Positions 3,178 through 58,973 of a stretch of 64,000 bases of DNA are shown in pieces. A model generated the notes under the pieces. It saw only the letters and a list, made by a program, of their open reading frames with translations. It did no database searches and was not told the DNA's origin. A program made the translations under genes and the position numbers. The stretch is from Escherichia coli. GTDB taxonomy: Bacteria > Pseudomonadota > Gammaproteobacteria > Enterobacterales > Enterobacteriaceae. The stretch is taken from NCBI RefSeq assembly GCF_030013595.1, contig NZ_CP122768.1, one strand, 5' to 3'. How positions within the stretch are numbered: the stretch's first letter is position 1; each line of letters starts with the position of its first letter.

Positions 3178-3567
3178 ATGAAACGTTATATAAAATGGTT
3201 TGCCATCACAATTTTTATCAGTATGTTGAGTGCCTGTGCCCGTACGGCCCCAGTGCAACAGATAAGCACCACTGTCAGTGTGGGTCATACTCAGGAGCAG
3301 GTTAAAAATGCCATTTTGAAAGCAGGTGCGCAGCGCAAGTGGATTATGACGCAAGTGTCCCCTGGAGTTATTAAAGCTCGCTATCAAACACGAAATCACG
3401 TTGCAGAGGTTCGTATTACATATACAGCTACCTACTATAACATCAAATATGACAGTAGCCTGAATCTGCAGGCTTCTGATGGAAAAATTCATAAAAACTA
3501 TAACCGCTGGGTGCGTAACCTAGATAAAGATATACAGGTTAACTTATCTACAGGAGCAACGTTATAG
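3178..3567 (+). CDS. Small predicted lipoprotein, first gene of the lipid-biosynthesis cluster region
   Basis: 129-aa ORF with signal peptide and lipobox (ISMLSAC); lies in visibly AT-rich DNA immediately upstream of the cluster methyltransferase. Confidence 0.6.
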   Translation: MKRYIKWFAITIFISMLSACARTAPVQQISTTVSVGHTQEQVKNAILKAGAQRKWIMTQVSPGVIKARYQTRNHVAEVRITYTATYYNIKYDSSLNLQASDGKIHKNYNRWVRNLDKDIQVNLSTGATL

Positions 3568-3631
3568 TGATGCTGATATCGGGCTGGAATGGCCCGATAG
3601 TATTTAACTTTCTCTATAAGAATGGTTATAT

Positions 3632-4690
3632 ATGTACGAACAGGACACGCTCAGCGCACTGGATGCCATCACCGAAGCACAGCGGATTGCCTTTGCTCCT
3701 ATGCTTTTCCAGGCAGCTTTGTGCCTGCGCAATGCAGGAATATTAGATTATTTGGATCAACAGGGTAAACAGGGAGCTCCCCTTAATGCGATTACTGAGC
3801 ACACAGTCCTGAATGAATATGCCGTGGGTGTGTTACTGGATATGGGCTTAAGCGGGCGAATTATTACCTGTAAAGAGGGAATTTATTACCTGGCGAAAAT
3901 CGGTCATTACCTCCTGCATGACACTATGACTCGCGTGAATATGGATTTCACCCAGGATGTCTGTTACCAGGGGCTCTTCTTCCTTGCCGATTCACTCAAT
4001 GAAGGAAAACCTTCCGGGTTAAAAGTATTTGGCGACTGGCCGACGATATATCCGGCACTTTCGCAATTACCAGACGCCGCACGTGATAGCTGGTTTGCGT
4101 TTGATCATTACTATTCAGATGGCGCATTTAACGCCGCACTGCCTTATGTATTCGCCAACAACCCCACAACCTTGTACGATGTGGGTGGCAATACGGGTAA
4201 GTGGGCTTTGCGCTGCTGCAAATTCAATGAAAACATCGCCGTTACGTTATTAGATCTGCCACAACAAATCGTACTGGCGAAAGAAAATATCGCGAATGCA
4301 GGTTTTTCTGATCGCATAGATTTCCATGCGGTGGATATGCTAAGCGATGCCCCATTACCAGGCGAGGCTGATATCTGGTGGATGAGCCAATTTTTAGACT
4401 GTTTTTCACCCGAACAAATAATTAGCATACTCAGCAAAATTGCCAGCGTAATGAAGCCTGGCGCAAAACTTTGCATCATGGAGTTGTTCTGGGATGCACA
4501 GCGGTTTGAAGCGACATCGTTTAGCCTGAATGCATCCTCACTTTATTTTACCTGCATGGCAAACGGTAACAGCCGTTTCTATAGTGCAGAGAAATTTTAC
4601 GACTATCTGAATAAAGCAGGATTCCAGGTAGCAGAGTGTCACGATAATTTAGGCGTTGGGCATACACTTTTGATATGCCAAAAGAAATAA
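3632..4690 (+). CDS. SAM-dependent methyltransferase (APE-cluster methyltransferase-like)
   Basis: 352-aa ORF with SAM-binding motif LYDVGGNTGKWA; position matches the methyltransferase of aryl-polyene clusters. Confidence 0.75.
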   Translation: MYEQDTLSALDAITEAQRIAFAPMLFQAALCLRNAGILDYLDQQGKQGAPLNAITEHTVLNEYAVGVLLDMGLSGRIITCKEGIYYLAKIGHYLLHDTMTRVNMDFTQDVCYQGLFFLADSLNEGKPSGLKVFGDWPTIYPALSQLPDAARDSWFAFDHYYSDGAFNAALPYVFANNPTTLYDVGGNTGKWALRCCKFNENIAVTLLDLPQQIVLAKENIANAGFSDRIDFHAVDMLSDAPLPGEADIWWMSQFLDCFSPEQIISILSKIASVMKPGAKLCIMELFWDAQRFEATSFSLNASSLYFTCMANGNSRFYSAEKFYDYLNKAGFQVAECHDNLGVGHTLLICQKK

Positions 4691-4730
4691 TCGTCACTTA
4701 ATAATTTTGGTTTACCGCGGGCGCGCGTTG

Positions 4731-5453
4731 ATGAAATTTGCATTAAATATTACCAACTGGCAGGCACTGGCGCCTGGACTTAGCGATGTGCAGCAATGGC
4801 AAGCATGGTCGCGCCAGCCGTGGGCGATTGACCCTGCCGCGCCGTTGGCAAAATTAAGTGAACTGCCAATGATGACCGCTCGTCGTCTCAGTTCAGGCAG
4901 CAAACTGGCTGTTGAATGCGGTCTGACAATGCTACGCCGCCATCAGCCAGACGCTGTTTTGTATACCAGTCGTCATGGCGAACTGGAGCGCAATTACCGC
5001 ATTGTTCATGCACTGGCAACCGAACAGGCGCTTTCTCCGACGGACTTCGCGCTTTCCGTACACAACTCTTCCGTGGGTAACCTGACCATTGTGGCCAAAC
5101 AGCCGATCGTTTCGTCATCGCTTTCGGCTGGTCGCGACAGTTTCCAGCAAGGTTTGTGTGAAGTGCTTAGCCTGCTACAAGCGGGATACCAGCGCGTGTT
5201 GATGGTCGATTTTGATGGCTTTCTACCTGAGTTTTATCACCCGCAACTGCCCGCAGAAATGCCTACCTGGCCGTACGCCGTCGCGCTGGTGATTGAAGCT
5301 GGCGATGACTGGCAATGTGAAACGCAGCCAGCCATTGCGGTAAATGAAACAACACTGCCGCAAAGCATCTTGTTTTTACAGCACTATTTACAAAATGCAG
5401 ATGCTTTTTCACTGCCTGGCGAGCGCGTGCAATGGCGCTGGAGCCGCAGATGA
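4731..5453 (+). CDS. Beta-ketoacyl-synthase-like protein (short KS-like, possible chain-length-factor partner)
   Basis: ORF track starts at TTG 4707; ATG at 4731 (MKFALNITNW) is more plausible. About 240 aa, shorter than a catalytic KS. Confidence 0.6.
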   Translation: MKFALNITNWQALAPGLSDVQQWQAWSRQPWAIDPAAPLAKLSELPMMTARRLSSGSKLAVECGLTMLRRHQPDAVLYTSRHGELERNYRIVHALATEQALSPTDFALSVHNSSVGNLTIVAKQPIVSSSLSAGRDSFQQGLCEVLSLLQAGYQRVLMVDFDGFLPEFYHPQLPAEMPTWPYAVALVIEAGDDWQCETQPAIAVNETTLPQSILFLQHYLQNADAFSLPGERVQWRWSRR

Positions 5454-6271
5454 GTAAGCTGATGTCGCGCCTGGGATGGGCATGGCGACTGGTCATGACC
5501 GGGTTATGTTTTGTCCTGTTTGGTCTCGGCGGCCTGCTGCTTTCAGTCGTGTGGTTTAACATATTGTTAGTTTTGGTGTGGGATACTTCCCGCCGCCGTC
5601 GTTTGGCACGTCGCAGCATTGCCGCCAGTTTTCGCCTGTTTTTAACTGTCGCGAAAGGGCTTGGCGTGCTGGATTATCGTATTGATGGCGCTGAAATTTT
5701 ACGTCAGGAACGCGGTTGCCTCGTCGTAGCCAATCATCCCACGCTGATCGATTACGTGCTGCTGGCATCAGTCATGCCAGAAACTGACTGCCTGGTGAAA
5801 AGCGCGCTGTTAAAAAATCCTTTTCTTGGCGGCGTCGTGCGAGCGGCAGATTATTTAATCAACAGCGAAGCAGAAACCCTGTTACCCCGCTGCCAACAGC
5901 GACTGGCACAGGGTGACACTATCCTGATTTTCCCCGAAGGCACACGAACGAAGCCCGGTGAAAAAATGACGTTACAGCGCGGTGCAGCGAATATTGCCGT
6001 GCGCTGCACCAGCGATTTACGCATCGTGACGATCGGCTGTAGCGAGCATCTGCTGGATAAACAAAGTAAGTGGTATGACGTCCCGCCTGCCAGGCCGTTT
6101 TTTACGGTTGAAGTCCGTGGGCGGGTAGAAATCAATAAATTTTACGATGCAACTTCACAAGAGCCGACGCTGGCTGCAAGACAGTTAAACCGGCATCTTT
6201 TGCTTCAATTACAGCAAGGTTGTTTACCTCTATCAGGAATAAATAATGCAAGCGCTTTATCTGGAAATTAA
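5450..6271 (+). CDS. Lysophospholipid/1-acyl-glycerol-3-phosphate acyltransferase family protein
   Basis: N-terminal membrane helix, acyltransferase motifs NHPTLIDYV (HX4D) and FPEGTR; ATG at 5450 overlaps the upstream stop (ATGA); the ORF track's alternative start is 5432. Confidence 0.8.
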   Translation: MSKLMSRLGWAWRLVMTGLCFVLFGLGGLLLSVVWFNILLVLVWDTSRRRRLARRSIAASFRLFLTVAKGLGVLDYRIDGAEILRQERGCLVVANHPTLIDYVLLASVMPETDCLVKSALLKNPFLGGVVRAADYLINSEAETLLPRCQQRLAQGDTILIFPEGTRTKPGEKMTLQRGAANIAVRCTSDLRIVTIGCSEHLLDKQSKWYDVPPARPFFTVEVRGRVEINKFYDATSQEPTLAARQLNRHLLLQLQQGCLPLSGINNASALSGN

Positions 6272-14029: not shown

Positions 14030-14610
14030 TCAAATCCACATTCTGGCGAGCGTTCGCCCTGACCGCTACGCTTATCCTCACCGGCTGTAGCCACTCGCAA
14101 CCAGAACAGGAAGGCCGCCCGCAGGCGTGGCTGCAACCTGGCACGCGCATCACGCTGCCGGCACCAGGGATTTCACCCGCAGTCAATTCGCAGCAACTGT
14201 TGACCGGCAGCTTCAACGGCAAAACCCAGTCGCTGTTAGTGATGCTTAACGCCGACGATCAGAAAATCACCCTTGCCGGGCTGTCGTCGGTCGGCATTCG
14301 CCTGTTTCTGGTGACCTACGATGCGCAAGGGCTACGCGCCGAGCAATCCATCGTCGTCCCACAGTTACCGCCCGCAAGTCAGGTACTGGCTGACGTGATG
14401 CTCAGCCACTGGCCGATTAGCGCCTGGGAGGCGCAACTTCCCGCAGGATGGACACTTCGCGACAACGGTGACAAACGCGAGCTGCGTAACGCCAGCGGCA
14501 AACTGGTCACGGAAATCACCTATCTGAATCGCCAGGGAAAACGCGTGCCAATCAGAATTGAGCAGCATGTCTTTAAATACCACATCACCATTCAATACTT
14601 AGGTGAATGA
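14026..14610 (+). CDS. Lipoprotein of unknown function
   Basis: 194-aa ORF with lipobox LTGC; ATGA overlap with upstream exporter gene. Confidence 0.65.
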   Translation: MIKSTFWRAFALTATLILTGCSHSQPEQEGRPQAWLQPGTRITLPAPGISPAVNSQQLLTGSFNGKTQSLLVMLNADDQKITLAGLSSVGIRLFLVTYDAQGLRAEQSIVVPQLPPASQVLADVMLSHWPISAWEAQLPAGWTLRDNGDKRELRNASGKLVTEITYLNRQGKRVPIRIEQHVFKYHITIQYLGE

Positions 14611-14611
14611 T

Positions 14612-15781
14612 ATGATTTATATTTCCGCCGTCGGCATGATCAACGCCCTGGGAAATAACCTTGACGAAATCGCAGCCAACCTGGCTCGCGGTGTCGCCCC
14701 CGGCATGCGCCCACGCGCAGGCTGGTTGCAGGGGCATCCGCAGGCGGTCCTGGCTGGCGTGGATGGCGAGCTTCCGCTTATCCCGGAAAAATTCGCTGCG
14801 CATCGCTCGCGCAACAATCAGATCCTGCTGGCGGCGCTGGCGCAGCTCCAGCCGCAGGTTGATGACGCTATCGCGAAATATGGCTGCGAGCGCATCGCGA
14901 TTGTGCTTGGCACCAGCACCTCCGGCCTGCATGAAGGCGACACGCACGTTAACCTGCACACCCACGGGCAGCCGAGCACCACGTGGCACTATGCACAACA
15001 AGAACTCGGCGATCCGTCGCGTTTTCTCAGCCACTGGCTGGCGCTCGACGGCCCGGCTTATACCCTTTCAACCGCCTGCTCCTCCAGTGCCAGAGCAATG
15101 ATCAGCGGGCGCAGGCTTATCGAAGCGGGGCTGGTCGATGCCGCCATTGTGGGTGGCGCAGACACCCTGAGCCGAATGCCGATTAACGGTTTTCACAGCC
15201 TCGAATCGCTCTCGCCAACCTTATGTCAGCCGTTTAGTCGTGACCGCGCAGGTATCACCATTGGTGAAGGGGCGGGGCTAATGCTGCTGACCCGGGAACC
15301 GCAGCCCATCGCGTTGCTGGGCGTTGGTGAATCGAGCGACGCTTACCATATTTCAGCCCCGCATCCGCAGGGCGAAGGAGCGATCCGCGCTATTAATCAG
15401 GCGCTGACCGATGCGCAGCTTACGCCGGATGACGTCGGCTATATCAACCTGCACGGCACCGCCACACAGCTCAACGACCAGATTGAATCAATGGTGGTTA
15501 ACGCCCTGTTTGGCGAACGCGTACCGTGCAGCTCCACCAAACATTTGACCGGACACACGCTCGGCGCGGCTGGCATTACCGAGGCGGCAATTAGTATGTT
15601 GATTTTACAGCGTGATTTACCGCTGCCCGCTCAGGACTTCAGCCTGTCGCCGCGCGATCCCACGCTGCCACCGTGTGGCATTATCGAAAAACCGCAGCCG
15701 CTGGCACGTCCGGTGATCCTGTCCAATTCCTTCGCCTTTGGCGGCAATAACGCCAGCATTCTGCTCGGGAGGGTTTCGTGA
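14612..15781 (+). CDS. Beta-ketoacyl-ACP synthase (FabF/FabB-like KS)
   Basis: About 390-aa ORF with KS catalytic-region motifs (active-site Cys context STACSS, HGTAT, GHTLGAAG); ATG at 14612 preceded by AGGTGA. Confidence 0.85.
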   Translation: MIYISAVGMINALGNNLDEIAANLARGVAPGMRPRAGWLQGHPQAVLAGVDGELPLIPEKFAAHRSRNNQILLAALAQLQPQVDDAIAKYGCERIAIVLGTSTSGLHEGDTHVNLHTHGQPSTTWHYAQQELGDPSRFLSHWLALDGPAYTLSTACSSSARAMISGRRLIEAGLVDAAIVGGADTLSRMPINGFHSLESLSPTLCQPFSRDRAGITIGEGAGLMLLTREPQPIALLGVGESSDAYHISAPHPQGEGAIRAINQALTDAQLTPDDVGYINLHGTATQLNDQIESMVVNALFGERVPCSSTKHLTGHTLGAAGITEAAISMLILQRDLPLPAQDFSLSPRDPTLPPCGIIEKPQPLARPVILSNSFAFGGNNASILLGRVS

Positions 15782-16242
15782 GCCACTATTTATCCCCCGG
15801 CGCTTATCTGCCCCACGACGCGCCCATGTTACTGCTGGAAGACGTGGTGAGCGTCAGCGATGACAGCGCGGTGTGCCGCGTGACGGTTTCGCCCAGTGGC
15901 GTACTGGCACCGTTTCTCGACCCGGACGGCAATCTCCCTGGCTGGTTTGCCCTTGAACTGATGGCGCAAACCGTCGGCGTCTGGTCTGGCTGGCATCGCC
16001 ACCAGCAGGGCAAAAACAGTATTGAGTTAGGGATGATACTGGGCGCGCGTGAATTGCTTTGCACCACTGGCATTCTGCCCGCAGGCCAGACGCTGACCAT
16101 TACCGTCAAACTGCTGATGCAGGACGATCGCTTCGGCAGCTTTGAGTGCAGCATCAACGACGGCGAGGCGACGGGCCGCATTAACACCTTCCAGCCGACC
16201 GCGGAAGAACTTACCACCCTGTTTCAACAAGGAGCGTCCTGA
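15778..16242 (+). CDS. FabA/FabZ-like 3-hydroxyacyl-ACP dehydratase (hot-dog fold)
   Basis: 154-aa ORF, GTG start overlapping upstream stop. Confidence 0.7.
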   Translation: MSHYLSPGAYLPHDAPMLLLEDVVSVSDDSAVCRVTVSPSGVLAPFLDPDGNLPGWFALELMAQTVGVWSGWHRHQQGKNSIELGMILGARELLCTTGILPAGQTLTITVKLLMQDDRFGSFECSINDGEATGRINTFQPTAEELTTLFQQGAS

Positions 16243-16973
16243 TGAGTCGTTCAGTTCTGGTTACTGGTGCCAGCAAAGGCATTGGTCGCGCCATCGCCTG
16301 CAAGCTTGCGGCAGACGGCTTTAACATTGGCGTTCACTATCACCGTGACGCCACAGGCGCTCAGGAAACGCTGAATGCCATTGTCGCCAACGGGGGTAAC
16401 GGGCGTTTGCTCAGTTTCGACGTCGCAAACCGCGAACAGTGTCGGGAAGTGCTGGAGCATGAGATCGCGCAACACGGTGCCTGGTACGGCGTGGTCAGTA
16501 ACGCCGGGATCGCCCGCGATGCCGCTTTTCCGGCTTTAAGCGATGACGACTGGGATGCGGTGATCCACACCAACCTCGACAGTTTCTACAACGTCATTCA
16601 GCCGTGCATTATGCCAATGATCGGCGCGCGCCAGGGTGGGCGCATCATCACGCTGTCCTCGGTTTCCGGCGTAATGGGCAATCGCGGCCAGGTGAATTAC
16701 AGCGCAGCCAAAGCCGGAATTATCGGCGCAACAAAAGCACTGGCTATCGAACTCGCAAAGCGCAAAATCACCGTCAATTGCATCGCGCCAGGGCTTATTG
16801 ATACCGGGATGATCGAAATGGAAGAAAGCGCTCTGAAAGAGGCAATGTCGATGATCCCCATGAAACGTATGGGCCAGGCGGAAGAAGTTGCCGGGCTTGC
16901 CAGTTATTTAATGTCTGATATTGCGGGTTACGTCACCCGCCAGGTTATTTCCATCAACGGAGGGATGTTATGA
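16242..16973 (+). CDS. 3-oxoacyl-ACP reductase (FabG-like short-chain dehydrogenase)
   Basis: 243-aa ORF with NAD(P)-binding TGASKGIGRA and SDR catalytic YSAAK motif. Confidence 0.9.
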   Translation: MSRSVLVTGASKGIGRAIACKLAADGFNIGVHYHRDATGAQETLNAIVANGGNGRLLSFDVANREQCREVLEHEIAQHGAWYGVVSNAGIARDAAFPALSDDDWDAVIHTNLDSFYNVIQPCIMPMIGARQGGRIITLSSVSGVMGNRGQVNYSAAKAGIIGATKALAIELAKRKITVNCIAPGLIDTGMIEMEESALKEAMSMIPMKRMGQAEEVAGLASYLMSDIAGYVTRQVISINGGML

Positions 16974-18199
16974 CACGTCGCGTAGTGATTACAGGAATGG
17001 GCGGCGTGACTGCCTTTGGTGAAAACTGGCAGGACGTTTCTGCACGCTTACTGGCGTATGAAAATGCGGTGCGCAAAATGCCGGAGTGGCAGGTCTACGA
17101 TGGGCTGCACACCCTGCTTGGCGCGCCTGTTGATGATTTCACGCTACCGGAGCACTACACCCGCAAGCGTATCCGTGCGATGGGCCGCGTGTCGCAAATG
17201 TCGACCCGTGCCAGCGAGCTGGCGTTAGAGCAGGCAGGGTTGATTGGCGATCCGATATTAACCAGCGGCGAAACGGGCATTGCGTACGGTTCATCGACCG
17301 GCAGTACCGGTCCGGTGAGCGAATTTGCCACCATGCTGACTGAAAAGCACACGAACAACATCACTGGCACCACCTATGTGCAGATGATGCCGCACACCAC
17401 CGCTGTTAATACTGGCCTCTTTTTCGGCCTGCGCGGGCGGGTGATCCCAACCTCCAGCGCCTGTACCTCCGGCAGCCAGGCGATCGGTTATGCGTGGGAA
17501 GCCATTCGCCACGGTTATCAAACGGTGATGGTTGCCGGTGGTGCCGAAGAGTTATGCCCTTCAGAAGCAGCAGTGTTTGATACCCTTTTTGCCACCAGCC
17601 AGCACAATGATGCGCCGAAAACCACACCTTCACCGTTCGATGAAAACCGCGACGGACTGGTGATTGGTGAAGGCGCAGGTACGCTCATTCTCGAAGAACT
17701 GGAGCATGCCAAAGCGCGCGGCGCGACCATTTACGGTGAAATCGTCGGCTTTGCGACGAACTGCGACGCGGCACATATTACCCAGCCGCAGCGCGAAACC
17801 ATGCAGTATTGTATGGAGCAATCGCTGAAAATCGCAGGGTTAAGCGCACAAGATATCGGCTATATTTCAGCGCATGGTACGGCGACCGATCGCGGTGATA
17901 TGGCAGAAAGTCTGGCGACAGCAACCATTTACGGTGATAATGTGCCGCTCTCCTCGCTGAAAAGTTATTTTGGTCATACGCTTGGTGCCTGTGGCGCGCT
18001 CGAAGCCTGGATGAGTCTGCAAATGATGCGCGAAGGTTGGTTTGCGCCTACGCTAAACCTGAATAAACCAGACCCGAATTGTGGCGCGCTGGATTACATC
18101 ATGCATGAAGCCCGCAGGGTTGATTGTGAGTTTTTGCAGAGTAACAACTTTGCCTTTGGCGGCATTAATACATCCATCATTATTAAGCGCTGGCCCTGA
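16970..18199 (+). CDS. Beta-ketoacyl-ACP synthase (FabB/FabF-like KS)
   Basis: 409-aa ORF with KS motifs (SSACTSG, HGTAT, GHTLGACG); ATGA overlap with reductase gene. Confidence 0.9.
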   Translation: MTRRVVITGMGGVTAFGENWQDVSARLLAYENAVRKMPEWQVYDGLHTLLGAPVDDFTLPEHYTRKRIRAMGRVSQMSTRASELALEQAGLIGDPILTSGETGIAYGSSTGSTGPVSEFATMLTEKHTNNITGTTYVQMMPHTTAVNTGLFFGLRGRVIPTSSACTSGSQAIGYAWEAIRHGYQTVMVAGGAEELCPSEAAVFDTLFATSQHNDAPKTTPSPFDENRDGLVIGEGAGTLILEELEHAKARGATIYGEIVGFATNCDAAHITQPQRETMQYCMEQSLKIAGLSAQDIGYISAHGTATDRGDMAESLATATIYGDNVPLSSLKSYFGHTLGACGALEAWMSLQMMREGWFAPTLNLNKPDPNCGALDYIMHEARRVDCEFLQSNNFAFGGINTSIIIKRWP

Positions 18200-19038: not shown

Positions 19039-20070
19039 TCATGTACTCTGACGTAATTCTATCTGGTAGTTGAATTGCACGATACGCGACTCTTCTGATT
19101 CATCATGATTATTATTCAATAGTCCAATCAGTAACTTACCTGTCTCTATCCCCATTTTTTTGTAGTCAATACGGATGGATGTCAAAGTTGGGTGTGTTTG
19201 ATCGCAATTGTCTGAACCGTCAAGACAAGCTACAGCGATATTTCCAGGGATTTTTAACAAACGCCGCTGGCACTCAAACATTATACCCAGCGCAATCTCT
19301 TCGTGGCTGCAAATCACAGCATCCAGCTCTGGTTGTCGCAGTAATATCTCGTTTAATGCGTAACGCCCCAATTGCAGACTTGCGGCATCCGGCATGGTGA
19401 TAACAAGATCAGTGTTCTGGTAATGGCTCAGCATTGCTTTATGCCAGCCGTTCAGTTGCTGACGTTGCAGGCGGTTGTCCATATGCGCACCGATAAATCC
19501 GATATTCTTATAACCCTGCTCCAGCAGATGTTCGGTCAGTTTATGTGATGCTTCAAAAAATGCTGTTTCGATGGTAATTTGAGCCGGACTGAAAGGGGAA
19601 CCGATAACGTTAATGGTAGGTATATTTGTTTTCTCGAGTATCTGGTGAGTTTTATCAGCCAACTGAGAACCAAAAATAACTAACGCCGCCGGGTTGCCTT
19701 GAAGAAGCGTCATCAGAATTTCAGCTTCTTTGAGCTGATTATACTCATGACACCCAAGCAGTAGCTGGAATTCATTTTTATTAAGCACCTGCTGTAATGA
19801 CTGCATAAAGCGGGAGCTGGCTTTATCTGTCAGGGAAGGAACCAGTACGGCGACTGTATGACTGTGACCAGATGCAAGGGCGCCAGCAGTTCTGTTGGGA
19901 ATATAACCCAACTCTTCTACGGCCTGTTCTATCTTTTCCCTCAGCTTGTCAGAAACCTGTTCCGGTGTTCTCAGCGCGCGGGAAACGGTCATAGTTCCGA
20001 CACCTGCAAAGTTAGCGACCTCCTGCAGCGTCACCCGTCCGGTACCACGGCGCTTACGTGTTTTTTCCAT
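19039..20070 (-). CDS. LacI/GalR-family transcriptional regulator
   Basis: 343-aa ORF with N-terminal HTH (VTLQEVANFAGVGTMTVSRAL) and periplasmic-binding-protein-like sugar-binding domain. Confidence 0.9.
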   Translation of the reverse strand: MEKTRKRRGTGRVTLQEVANFAGVGTMTVSRALRTPEQVSDKLREKIEQAVEELGYIPNRTAGALASGHSHTVAVLVPSLTDKASSRFMQSLQQVLNKNEFQLLLGCHEYNQLKEAEILMTLLQGNPAALVIFGSQLADKTHQILEKTNIPTINVIGSPFSPAQITIETAFFEASHKLTEHLLEQGYKNIGFIGAHMDNRLQRQQLNGWHKAMLSHYQNTDLVITMPDAASLQLGRYALNEILLRQPELDAVICSHEEIALGIMFECQRRLLKIPGNIAVACLDGSDNCDQTHPTLTSIRIDYKKMGIETGKLLIGLLNNNHDESEESRIVQFNYQIELRQST

Positions 20071-20215
20071 TTCGACTCCATGGATAATTACAACCAGCTG
20101 TTTTCATTACTTTTATTTCACCATTACTCTTTCCAGTTTTTGCCCACGGTAGCAAATATCCTGTTGCATTGTATATGCAGGAACCGAATATAGCCAAAGC
20201 ATGGCGGCAGAGAAA

Positions 20216-20263
20216 TGATAGCGCTATCACAAAGATTGGTAGCGTTATCAGATAGCGCTATCA
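20216..20263. promoter_or_regulatory. Two copies of a 14-bp palindrome (TGATAGCGCTATCA and AGATAGCGCTATCA), candidate LacI-family operators
   Basis: Perfect and near-perfect palindromes at 20216-20229 and 20250-20263, in the divergent intergenic region between the regulator and the PTS operon. Confidence 0.55.
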
Positions 20264-20340
20264 AATGCGACAATCATCACATTAATTAATGCGTAAAATA
20301 TCTACTCTCCTGTTAATTATCATCGGGAGTTATCAGTAGC

Positions 20341-20784
20341 ATGTTAAAAAATCTATTAAATACAGAGGTCGTTCAGGTCGTGGAACAGGTCAAAGACTGG
20401 CGGGAAGCCGTGGCGATTTCATGCCGACCGTTGATTGAAAACGGCTCTATCGAACCGCGTTATGTTGATGCGATCTATCACTCGCACGACACTATCGGTC
20501 CGTACTATGTGGTTGGCCCTGGTATTGCGATGCCTCATGCGCGCCCGGAAGAGGGGGCTAACAAGCTGTCATTAGCACTGACCCTGATCCCTTCAGGTGT
20601 GAATTTTGATGCCGATGAAAACGATCCAGTGAAATTACTGATTGTGCTGGCTGCAACCGACAGTACCAGCCACATTGAAGCGATTTCTCAACTCGCCAAG
20701 TTATTCGATAACGAAAAAGACATACAGGCCATTTTGACGGCCAAAACGACGCAGGACATTTTGTCTGTTATTGCGCGCTATTAA
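20341..20784 (+). CDS. PTS EIIA component (mannitol/fructose/ascorbate-type EIIA)
   Basis: 147-aa ORF with active-site His context (GIAMPHAR). Confidence 0.85.
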   Translation: MLKNLLNTEVVQVVEQVKDWREAVAISCRPLIENGSIEPRYVDAIYHSHDTIGPYYVVGPGIAMPHARPEEGANKLSLALTLIPSGVNFDADENDPVKLLIVLAATDSTSHIEAISQLAKLFDNEKDIQAILTAKTTQDILSVIARY

Positions 20785-20799
20785 TCCAGAGGAACATTT

Positions 20800-21087
20800 A
20801 TGAAAATTACAGTGGTTTGCGGTAACGGCTTAGGCACCAGCCTGATGATGGAAATGAGCATTAAAAGCATTTTGAAGGATTTGTCCGTCAGCGCTGATGT
20901 TGATCACGTCGACCTGGGCTCCGCGAAAGGGACGCCGAGTGATATCTATGTCGGCACCAAAGACATTGCCGAGCAGTTAGCCGCGCAGTCTGTCGCAGGC
21001 AAAATCGTCGCACTGGAAAATATGATTGATAAGAAAGCCATGAGAGAACGTTTGTCCGTGGTATTAACCGAATTAGGCGCACTGTAA
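20800..21087 (+). CDS. PTS EIIB component (ascorbate/galactitol-type)
   Basis: 95-aa ORF with N-terminal phospho-Cys motif VVCGNGLGTS. Confidence 0.85.
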   Translation: MKITVVCGNGLGTSLMMEMSIKSILKDLSVSADVDHVDLGSAKGTPSDIYVGTKDIAEQLAAQSVAGKIVALENMIDKKAMRERLSVVLTELGAL

Positions 21088-21099
21088 GCTGGGGGCGAT

Positions 21100-22356
21100 A
21101 TGGATTTCTTTCGTTTTTTGATGAGCGATGTACTTTCCGAACCCGCAGTGCTGGTCGGTTTAATCGCCCTGATTGGCCTGATTGCACAGAAAAAACCGGT
21201 AACCGAATGCATTAAAGGTACCGTCAAGACCATTATGGGGTTTGTGATTTTAGGCGCAGGGGCGGGTTTAGTTGTGTCGTCACTGGGTGACTTCGCAAAC
21301 ATTTTCCAGCATGCCTTTGGTATTCAGGGTGTAGTGCCGAACAATGAAGCCATTGTTTCCGTAGCGCAGAAAAGCTTCGGGAAAGAAATGGCGATGATTA
21401 TGTTCTTTGCGATGGTTATCAACATTATGATTGCCCGTTTCACACCGTGGAAATTTATCTTCCTGACCGGTCATCACACGTTGTTTATGTCGATGATGGT
21501 AGCGGTAATTCTGGCAACAGCAGGCATGACCGGCATTACGCTTATAGCCGTTGGCTCTTTGGTTGTTGGCGTGGCAATGGTCTTTTTCCCGGCTATTGCG
21601 CATCCGTACATGAAGAAAGTGACCGGTTCTGATGACGTTGCCATCGGCCACTTCTCAACATTATCTTATGTATTGGCCGGTTTCATCGGCAGCAAGTTTG
21701 GTAATAAAGAGCACTCGACTGAAGACATGAATGTGCCGAAAAGTCTGCTGTTCTTGCGCGACACGCCGGTTGCTATCTCTTTTACCATGAGCATAATTTT
21801 CCTGGTGACGTGCCTGTTTGCGGGTGCAGATGCGGTGAAAGAGCTTAGCGGTGGTAAAAACTGGTTCATGTTCTCTATCATGCAATCCATTACCTTCGCA
21901 GCTGGCGTGTACATCATTCTGCAGGGTGTGCGCATGGTGATTGCGGAGATTGTCCCGGCATTCAAAGGTATTTCAGACAAGCTGGTTCCGAATGCCAGAC
22001 CTGCTCTCGATTGCCCGGTCGTCTTCCCTTACGCACCTAACGCTGTACTGGTTGGTTTCCTGAGTAGCTTTGCTGCAGGTTTAATCGGTATGTTCACGTT
22101 GTATCTGCTGAACATGATCGTGATTATTCCTGGTGTGGTGCCGCACTTCTTCGTAGGTGCAGCTGCAGGGGTATTCGGTAATGCAACGGGTGGACGTCGT
22201 GGTGCGATTTTGGGTGCCTTCGCTCAGGGCTTGCTTATTACCTTCCTGCCAGTATTCTTATTGCCGGTGCTGGGTGATATTGGTTTTGCTAACACCACCT
22301 TCAGTGATGCTGACTTTGGCGCACTGGGTATTTTGTTAGGGATTATCGTTCGCTAA
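21100..22356 (+). CDS. PTS EIIC permease (UlaA/SgaT family)
   Basis: 418-aa polytopic membrane ORF following IIA and IIB. Confidence 0.85.
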   Translation: MDFFRFLMSDVLSEPAVLVGLIALIGLIAQKKPVTECIKGTVKTIMGFVILGAGAGLVVSSLGDFANIFQHAFGIQGVVPNNEAIVSVAQKSFGKEMAMIMFFAMVINIMIARFTPWKFIFLTGHHTLFMSMMVAVILATAGMTGITLIAVGSLVVGVAMVFFPAIAHPYMKKVTGSDDVAIGHFSTLSYVLAGFIGSKFGNKEHSTEDMNVPKSLLFLRDTPVAISFTMSIIFLVTCLFAGADAVKELSGGKNWFMFSIMQSITFAAGVYIILQGVRMVIAEIVPAFKGISDKLVPNARPALDCPVVFPYAPNAVLVGFLSSFAAGLIGMFTLYLLNMIVIIPGVVPHFFVGAAAGVFGNATGGRRGAILGAFAQGLLITFLPVFLLPVLGDIGFANTTFSDADFGALGILLGIIVR

Positions 22357-58710: not shown

Positions 58711-58973
58711 AGCTTTCCTCGCAGAGTTGGCCCATTTCCGCAAACGCCAGAAAAATCAGCGCGACGGCCGCAAAAGGGGAGCGGGAATTGCAGGATGCAA
58801 TCTCTGTAACAAGCGTAGCGGGTTTGCTTACACCCTCCGGTTAAGGAATGTACAATCAAACCAGTTGACGCCTGAATTGGGCAGTTAATGACCTTTTTAC
58901 CCTACCAGTGTTTAAATTTGTGATCAACTTCACACATGTATTTCGTTTAGGACTCATTGGTGTAACTGATTAT

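Follow-up and report, generated by a model that had tools for sequence, protein, structure and literature searches.

The question raised by this locus is how a LacI-family regulator and a sugar transporter of the phosphotransferase system (PTS), which face each other across a short stretch of DNA, are connected through that stretch. The locus is found in 64,000 nucleotides of Escherichia coli DNA (NCBI RefSeq assembly GCF_030013595.1, contig NZ_CP122768.1), called here the window, and is the E. coli accessory "vpe" cassette adjoining the deoK island. In this cassette, a divergent gap of 270 bp separates the start codon of the regulator gene (20070, minus strand), whose product is termed VpeR here for convenience, from the genes for the PTS enzymes IIA, IIB and IIC (20341-22356, plus strand). 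An earlier note, made from the letters alone, had reported two palindromes in this gap, with centres 34 bp apart, and had taken them to be paired operators at which the regulator controls both itself and the PTS genes, possibly by DNA looping. Both palindromes are indeed present at those places (O1 and O3 in Table 1) and both are retained here as operator sites; the pairing, however, does not hold, since a third copy, O2, lies between them and makes the group a triplet. The best explanation, which we consider probable on comparative grounds, is that O1, O2 and O3 are the operators of VpeR itself and form a three-site array that would repress the transporter genes (vpeABC), likely by blocking CRP or RNA polymerase and not by looping.

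The three sites stand apart from the rest of the window. O1 is an even palindrome with a central CG step, which is the rule for LacI-family operators (PMC4052901), and both O2 and O3 keep the central CG. Measured between centres, the layout is O1-21 bp-O2-13 bp-O3, so that the 34 bp between O1 and O3 is the sum of two spacings; a repeat finder independently returned the same family of three copies, spaced by 21 and 13 bp. When at most two mismatches to the motif are allowed, O1, O2 and O3 are the only matches in the 64 kb, all of them inside 48 bp. When three are allowed, there are 9 matches against 2.75 expected, a number that none of 100 shuffled sequences reached. A weight matrix built from the sites of the orthologous loci alone gave 26.5 bits for O1, 24.2 for O3 and 17.9 for O2; the next best site in the window scored 7.1 bits, which is below the mean best score of shuffled sequence (8.3). 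The earlier note had proposed the frequency of the palindrome as a check, and in the DNA covered here the palindrome is rare: no other site with at most two mismatches occurs in the window, and in about 465 kb (the window plus related loci) just three such sites lie outside the arrays, with no further regulon member. A chance origin of the sites is excluded.

The protein encoded next to the array is of the corresponding family. VpeR has an N-terminal basic arm, a helix-turn-helix (HTH; MTVSRALR), a hinge (NRTAGALAS) and an effector domain resembling periplasmic binding proteins. Pfam recognizes PF00356 (residues 14-59), PF00532 and PF13377 in it, 17 LacI-family models of NCBIfam match it, and so do 45 solved LacI-family structures at E <1e-10. 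The hinge aligns with that of the GntR structure 3h5o, is invariant in the orthologues and has the hinge-helix leucine, which in the structures of PurR and LacI acts at the central CpG of the operator. The LacI/GalR-type architecture that had been proposed for the palindromes is thus upheld by an even palindrome with a central CG and by an adjacent gene with both PF00356 and the hinge leucine.

Within the family, the best NCBIfam models for VpeR are of the GntR/IdnR type, and all score under their cut-offs (NF052440, 278.6 against 400; NF047913, 207.1 against 500; NF011563, 174.6 against 433). These scores, together with an identity of 33% to the GntR of E. coli K-12, make VpeR a relative of GntR and not a GntR. 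Among solved structures, 3d8u (effector domain, 231 bits) and 3h5o are the nearest to VpeR, and structures of CcpA, LacI and PurR also match. The entry 3d8u comes from structural genomics, has 275 residues and is annotated "PurR transcriptional regulator"; no characterised LacI-family structure comes near its score, and it may represent the effector domain of a VpeR-family protein, possibly of an orthologue. In the alignment with LacI, residues 13-311 of VpeR correspond to LacI residues 4-301, and the end of VpeR corresponds to about LacI residue 333. Since a protein of 343 residues has no room for LacI residues 340-357, VpeR lacks the LacI-type tetramerisation helix, the C-terminal heptad helix that marks the tetrameric lac-type repressor. 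From its sequence, VpeR is most likely a dimeric LacI-family protein.

The evidence that connects the array to this regulator is comparative. A scan of one genome per species yielded 29 loci with regulators 61-90% identical to VpeR, in Buttiauxella, Yersinia, Dryocola, Brenneria, Citrobacter, Moellerella, Edaphovirga and other genera. All 29 have regulator and IIA genes that point away from each other and an array at the same position, with three sites in 28 loci and two in Moellerella. Nearly every array is spaced 21+13 bp; Yersinia ruckeri, with 22+13, and Klebsiella sp. BIGb0407, with 22+22, show small variants. O1 is present in every locus with at most two mismatches to the consensus, and is mostly perfect; it is also found in Vibrio, Proteus and Edwardsiella. 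At the position equivalent to O2, most orthologues have the perfect palindrome TGATAGCGCTATCA, and at the position equivalent to O3, they have AGGTAGCGCTATCA or AGATAGCGCTA(T/C)CA. The locus of Vibrio diabolicus, where the regulator is 48% identical, has AAATGATAGCGCTATCACAATTAATGGTAGCGCTATCAGATAGCGCTACCA and the full 21+13 array. Proteus, Moellerella and Edwardsiella have O1 and O3 only, 34 bp apart.

The DNA-binding domain is nearly invariant in these proteins (...GRVTLQEVA..AGVG.MTVSRALRTPEQVSDKLREKIEQAVE.LGYIPNR.AGALAS), and the operators are the most conserved columns of the aligned intergenic regions: column conservation is 0.99 for O1, 0.94 for O2 and 0.95 for O3, against 0.55-0.64 in unconstrained stretches. 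Such joint conservation of motif and regulator strongly suggests, on the basis of sequence comparison, that the operators belong to this regulator. The genes that flank the cassette vary by genus (pta-ackA, pstB-phoU and others); therefore, the four-gene cassette together with the array is the conserved unit. In E. coli and most relatives, the cassette contains no catabolic genes, and the array therefore appears to control the four-gene module only. The family has clear limits: in clustering at 50% identity, it consists of three clusters (585, 467 and 354 bits), after which the scores fall sharply to 245 bits. Two of the next relatives (38-39% identity) were looked up; one is without a PTS, and the other is on a contig of 2.5 kb, too short for neighbours.

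Three observations on Yersinia concern decay and rearrangement of the locus. The PTS of Y. pestis NCTC5923 (L018, about 3500-5700) is inactivated, since its IIB stops at residue 80 and the locus has no detectable IIC; the operator array is still present. In Y. rohdei (L026, 6001-7031), the regulator gene has an early frameshift or stop. In Y. pestis and Y. similis, short repeats enlarge the intergenic regions.

Table 1. Features of the vpe locus, in coordinates of the window
Feature	Position	Strand	Description
Operator O1, TGATAGCGCTATCA	20216-20229		Perfect 14 bp palindrome, central CG
Operator O2, TGGTAGCGTTATCA	20237-20250		2 mismatches in E. coli; central CG; centre 21 bp from that of O1
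Operator O3, AGATAGCGCTATCA	20250-20263		Central CG; centre 13 bp from that of O2; begins on the final base of O2
Predicted sigma-70 promoter of the regulator gene	20168-20197	-	-35 TTGGCT (20197-20192), 18 bp spacer, -10 TACAAT (20173-20168); consensus scan
CRP-like site, AAATGCGACAATCATCACATTA	20263-20284		Core TGCGA-N6-TCACA at 20266-20281, centre 20273.5; abuts O3
Conserved box, CTACTCTC	20302-20309	+	Candidate -10 TACTCT (20303-20308); conservation of segment 20296-20310, 0.86
Shine-Dalgarno sequence of the IIA gene, GGGAG	20325-20329	+	Read from the sequence; conservation of segment 20325-20330, 0.91
LacI-family regulator gene (VpeR)	19039-20070	-	343 residues; open reading frame list; LacI family regulator in RefSeq
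PTS enzyme IIA gene	20341-20784	+	147 residues; ATG at 20341; open reading frame, profile match, RefSeq
PTS enzyme IIB gene	20800-21087	+	95 residues; open reading frame, profile match, RefSeq
PTS enzyme IIC gene, SgaT/UlaA (ascorbate-type) family	21100-22356	+	418 residues; NCBIfam and RefSeq

An important question is then how such an array might act on the two promoters between which it lies. On the side of the regulator, the hexamers of the predicted sigma-70 promoter recur in Buttiauxella, and conservation is 0.92 in the -10 and 0.87 in the -35. Transcription from it would start near 20161, with a leader of about 90 nucleotides that is poorly conserved. The array is located upstream of this promoter, 18 bp beyond the -35 hexamer.

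On the side of the transporter, O3 is abutted by a CRP-like site that the earlier note had overlooked. Of 30 aligned intergenic regions, 28 contain a sequence of the form TGnGA-N6-TCACA; its two pentamers have a column conservation of 0.94 and 0.98, and no alignment gap separates it from O3. We retain the site because of this conservation and fixed spacing, and not because of the significance of the match; on this basis, CRP may bind there. A perfect CRP-consensus core, TGTGATCAACTTCACA, is found elsewhere in the window, at 58919-58934, between open reading frames ending at 58743 (minus strand) and 58974 (minus strand).

The sigma-70 consensus scan found no clear vpeA promoter. Promoters that depend on an activator often have no clear sigma-70 consensus. 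With TACTCT (20303-20308) as the -10 element, vpeA transcription would start near 20315 and the CRP-like site would be centred at -41.5, as at class II promoters; the operators would then be at -58.5 (O3), -71.5 (O2) and -92.5 (O1). The box that contains this hexamer, CTACTCTC, is also complementary to the Shine-Dalgarno region GGGAGT, and folds of single sequences pair ACUCUC with GGGAGU (-13 kcal/mol in E. coli). Folding of the alignment gave no consensus structure of box and Shine-Dalgarno region and no clear covariation, and in an Rfam scan of the region no family reached significance. The box may serve as a -10 element or in a translational hairpin, or have neither role.

On the basis of these positions, regulation might proceed as follows. 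When no inducer is present, VpeR dimers would bind the operators through their HTH, with the hinge-helix leucine at the central CpG. The sites O1 and O2, two helical turns apart, would allow cooperative binding side by side, while O2 and O3 would form the 13 bp pair with one base in common that is typical of the GntR clade. O3 borders directly on the 22 bp CRP-like site, and its occupation could block either the binding of CRP or the docking of the C-terminal domain of the alpha subunit of RNA polymerase; indeed, the array would cover the zone where this domain docks at class II promoters. Without CRP or the alpha C-terminal domain in place, a CRP-dependent vpeABC promoter would be kept off, in a layout that resembles gal P1. 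VpeR would come off the DNA on binding an effector, probably a sugar phosphate produced by the transporter. O1, about 61.5 bp upstream of the putative regulator start near 20161 (position -61.5), may act on the promoter of the regulator gene itself, whether to raise or to lower its activity, and autoregulation by way of this site is plausible.

Several observations weigh against this explanation and should be set beside it. Neither predicted promoter has a hexamer under the array, which lies upstream of both; the way in which it would repress is thus deduced from geometry only. The CRP-like site, with one mismatch to TGTGA-N6-TCACA, is one of 2 matches in the window against 2.24 expected, which is the level of chance; moreover, it is lost in 2 of the 30 aligned loci, and none was seen in the intergenic sequence of Edwardsiella. 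O2 of E. coli, with its two mismatches, may be a weak site. Finally, an overlap of the O2/O3 type is hard to reconcile with solved structures, according to Ravcheev et al. 2014 (PMC4052901).

Another possibility is that the sites are VpeR operators but that VpeR acts by direct occlusion of a vpeA promoter built from the operator half-sites, with O2 over the -35 and O3 over the -10. Such a promoter would consist of TTGGTA (20236-20241), a 17 bp spacer and TATCAA (20259-20264); most orthologues have TTGATA, which agrees with TTGACA in five of six bases, at a spacer of exactly 17 bp. The 13 bp between the operators would find an explanation here, as the distance that produces the 17 bp spacer of the promoter, and the GntR-type pair at gntK is likewise near a gene start, in the promoter region. 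However, TATCAA is without the highly conserved final T, and the consensus scan calls no such promoter. Furthermore, transcription would begin near 20271, within the conserved CRP-like site, which would then have no activating role, and the 34 bp two-site variants, being without O2, would be without this -35. We regard direct occlusion as unlikely, although it deserves to be kept in view. Looping, in which two operators 34 bp apart would cooperate through one multimeric repressor, might be suggested by the loci of Proteus, Moellerella and Edwardsiella, which have just these two sites, and by the very conservation of several sites, which suggests cooperation. It is nevertheless hard to accept, and we rate it as very improbable: a third site lies in between in E. 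coli and most orthologues; the spacings are 13, 21 and 34 bp, the last being about 3.2 helical turns, hence out of phase and far below known repression loops; VpeR has no C-terminal extension that would match the tetramerisation helix of LacI; and no distant auxiliary operator is present in the 64 kb window. On these grounds, that part of the earlier note is set aside.

It might also be supposed that VpeR is mainly an activator, or a dual regulator, acting from about -61.5 at its own promoter and about -58.5 at vpeA. Activators typically bind at positions like these putative ones, upstream of both -35 regions, and STM2345/PagR, a LacI-family protein of Salmonella, has been reported as activating SPI-2 genes (PMC7808427, PMC12413039). 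Yet almost every LacI-family protein that locally controls genes for one sugar is a repressor, which an effector releases (PMC4052901); STM2345 is at most a possible orthologue of VpeR, no Salmonella protein being among the 120 best protein matches to VpeR (reaching down to 45% identity); and the start positions from which the distances are counted are themselves only deduced. An activating role is accordingly quite improbable in our view. As for the idea that the palindromes are not VpeR sites at all but a generic repeat, a hairpin or terminator-like element, or the target of some other host factor, it draws on two observations: the copies are mutually complementary, and a terminator scan flags the arrays of orthologues as stem-loops followed by T-rich DNA. 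We rejected a terminator because the array has divergent start codons on either side and no gene upstream is read into it, and because every copy is by itself a palindrome with a central CG. Against a generic element speak the near confinement of the motif to one intergenic region in about 465 kb, the lack of any matching Rfam family, and the fact that the motif travels with the regulator gene through varied chromosomal contexts and into a genomic island of E. coli. We attach hardly any credence to this idea.

Among known systems, the operators of GntR are close to the VpeR array. Like the GntR operators at gntKU and gntT, the vpe sites are even 14 bp palindromes with a central CG, and both proteins have a basic N-terminal arm ahead of the HTH. 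At gntK of K-12, TGTTACCGATAACA and AGTTACCCGTAACA are 13 bp apart and have one base in common, as do O2 and O3. Ravcheev et al. 2014 (PMC4052901) describe this arrangement as functional at gntKU and as the usual one among GntR orthologues. The half-sites differ, TGATAG in vpe against TGTTAC in GntR operators, as do the regulated genes, which are a gluconate kinase and permease for GntR and an SgaT-type PTS for VpeR. Unlike the GntR pair, moreover, the vpe array has a third site, in phase, 21 bp away. Palindromic LacI-family operators between divergent genes, in tandem or in threes, are well documented, as is autoregulation. Ravcheev et al. linked a spacing of two helical turns to cooperative binding side by side, and in their survey the distances between LacI-family sites peak at 13, 22 and 32 bp, three sites are found at 116 operons, and 72% of the regulators are autoregulated (PMC4052901).

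At gal P1, GalR binds the operator OE at -60.5, CRP binds at -41.5, and GalR at OE acts on the promoter. The vpe locus resembles it in having a LacI-family operator directly upstream of a CRP site: the centre of O3 is 17 bp from that of the CRP-like site, and with the putative vpeA start near 20315, the positions -58.5 and -41.5 would be near the gal geometry. The differences are that vpe has three clustered sites where gal has one, and that no downstream operator like OI was found, so no loop of the gal type is expected. The likeness to lac is one of sequence and protein. The ideal symmetric lac operator, TGTGAGCGCTCACA, has 10 of 14 bases in common with TGATAGCGCTATCA, including the central GCGC, and LacI and VpeR both have recognition helices of the TVSR type and a hinge leucine. 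The lac operators, however, are 92 or 401 bp apart; at vpe, where the distances of 13, 21 and 34 bp provide no auxiliary operator at a loop-compatible distance and VpeR has no tetramerisation helix, looping is not expected.

A family resembling VpeR may have been described in RegPrecise. The entries on the "SgaR" (ascorbate utilization) regulog in the supplement of PMC4052901 give a LacI-family regulator, exemplified by STM2345 (later PagR), with predicted control of PTS genes like SgaT/B/A. According to these entries, the regulator occurs in Vibrionales, Aeromonadales and Pasteurellales as well as in 9 of 12 Enterobacteriales genomes; 34 sites are counted over 9 regulons (about 3.8 each), and the effector is given as ascorbate-6-phosphate, which is itself a prediction. 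Taxonomic spread and multiplicity of sites are alike in SgaR and VpeR, and the two may be the same family; the Salmonella example is to be seen alongside the lack, mentioned above, of a Salmonella relative among the best matches to VpeR. The vpe array has probably been predicted computationally already, and the core biology, a local repressor of sugar transport with palindromic operators, is textbook.

A variant lineage is formed by Erwinia, Pectobacterium and Winslowiella, whose VpeR homologues (about 396 residues) have two tandem LacI-type HTH-hinge headpieces. PF00356 matches these proteins twice, at about residues 11-56 and 71-116 (genes L032:8001-9191, L035:6001-7191 and L036:6001-7188; also P0037-P0070). 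We know of no description of a LacI-family protein with a duplicated DNA-binding domain. The arrays of this lineage keep the 21+13 bp spacing with diverged sequences: O1' TGATAAGCCGATCA, O2' TGATAGTTATAACA and O3' AGTTAGCGTTATCT. In Erwinia (L035:5311-6000), about six tandem copies of a GC-rich palindromic element of about 80 bp, GGTGAGGCGT.CCTCGCCCC...GGGGTCAGGCA.GCCTGACCC, take up the whole space between the regulator gene and the array. In Pectobacterium (L032:4936-5601) and Winslowiella (L036:3004-3666), IIC is followed on the same strand by a gene of the transaldolase/fructose-6-phosphate-aldolase family (PF00923). No other metabolic gene was seen joined to the cassette, and this one may hint at the substrate, with pentulose or hexulose phosphates as candidate effectors.

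The invariance of the 21+13 layout from Vibrio to E. coli invites the speculation, unlikely as we hold it to be, that the array is the seat of an obligate higher-order complex of repressor and DNA, in which two dimers would occupy O2 and O3 simultaneously, on different faces of the DNA or on distorted DNA; the double-headpiece lineage would then be a natural variant of it. If this were so, the unexplained 13 bp peak in the spacing of LacI-family sites (Ravcheev et al. 2014, PMC4052901) would have a tractable model in the vpe system.

In E. coli itself, the cassette is accessory DNA with a nearly uniform control region. The 3.4 kb cassette has matches in 1349 of 5426 complete genomes, with at least 80% of its length in 935 (about 17%), and the intergenic region is found in 941 complete genomes, in 887 of them at an identity of at least 99%. 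In a second E. coli allele of this region, the operators are identical, including O2 as TGGTAGCGTTATCA. The assignment of IIC is secure against its NCBIfam model (NF006919, 628 bits, cut-off 380). IIC is 96% identical between E. coli and Yersinia, and the values for the regulator (about 78%) and IIA (about 75-79%) are much lower, which would reflect either an unusually strong constraint on the membrane subunit or a recent exchange.

In RefSeq, remnants of insertion sequences flank the cassette, and its neighbour is a cluster of a kinase, a fucP-like and an epimerase gene. The same arrangement has been described as the vpe locus, adjoining the deoK operon on pheV-type islands (PMC5382810, PMC6455142). 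In their passages on this locus, which cite Martinez-Jehanne 2012, both papers credit vpe with contributions to urovirulence, sepsis, capsule-like material and gut colonisation. RefSeq annotates no feature inside the vpe intergenic region; a literature search found no account of vpe regulation and no experimental work on vpe operators, and a full-text search for GATAGCGCTATC returned unrelated uses only (HhaI substrates and a streptococcal CcpA site). Upstream of the cassette, at 14603-18199 of the window, a run of plus-strand open reading frames includes a beta-ketoacyl-acyl carrier protein synthase (NF006587, 778 bits), a sign that an accessory cluster of the fatty-acid or polyketide-like kind may lie here. 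In another E. coli strain, other genes occupy this position, and the island is therefore mosaic.

For the biology of E. coli, the operator array, the CRP-like site and the regulator promoter are concrete targets for studying the transcription of the virulence-associated vpe transporter. For the LacI family as a whole, an array as highly conserved as this one, with its 21+13 bp layout, could help to explain how overlapping operators are read.

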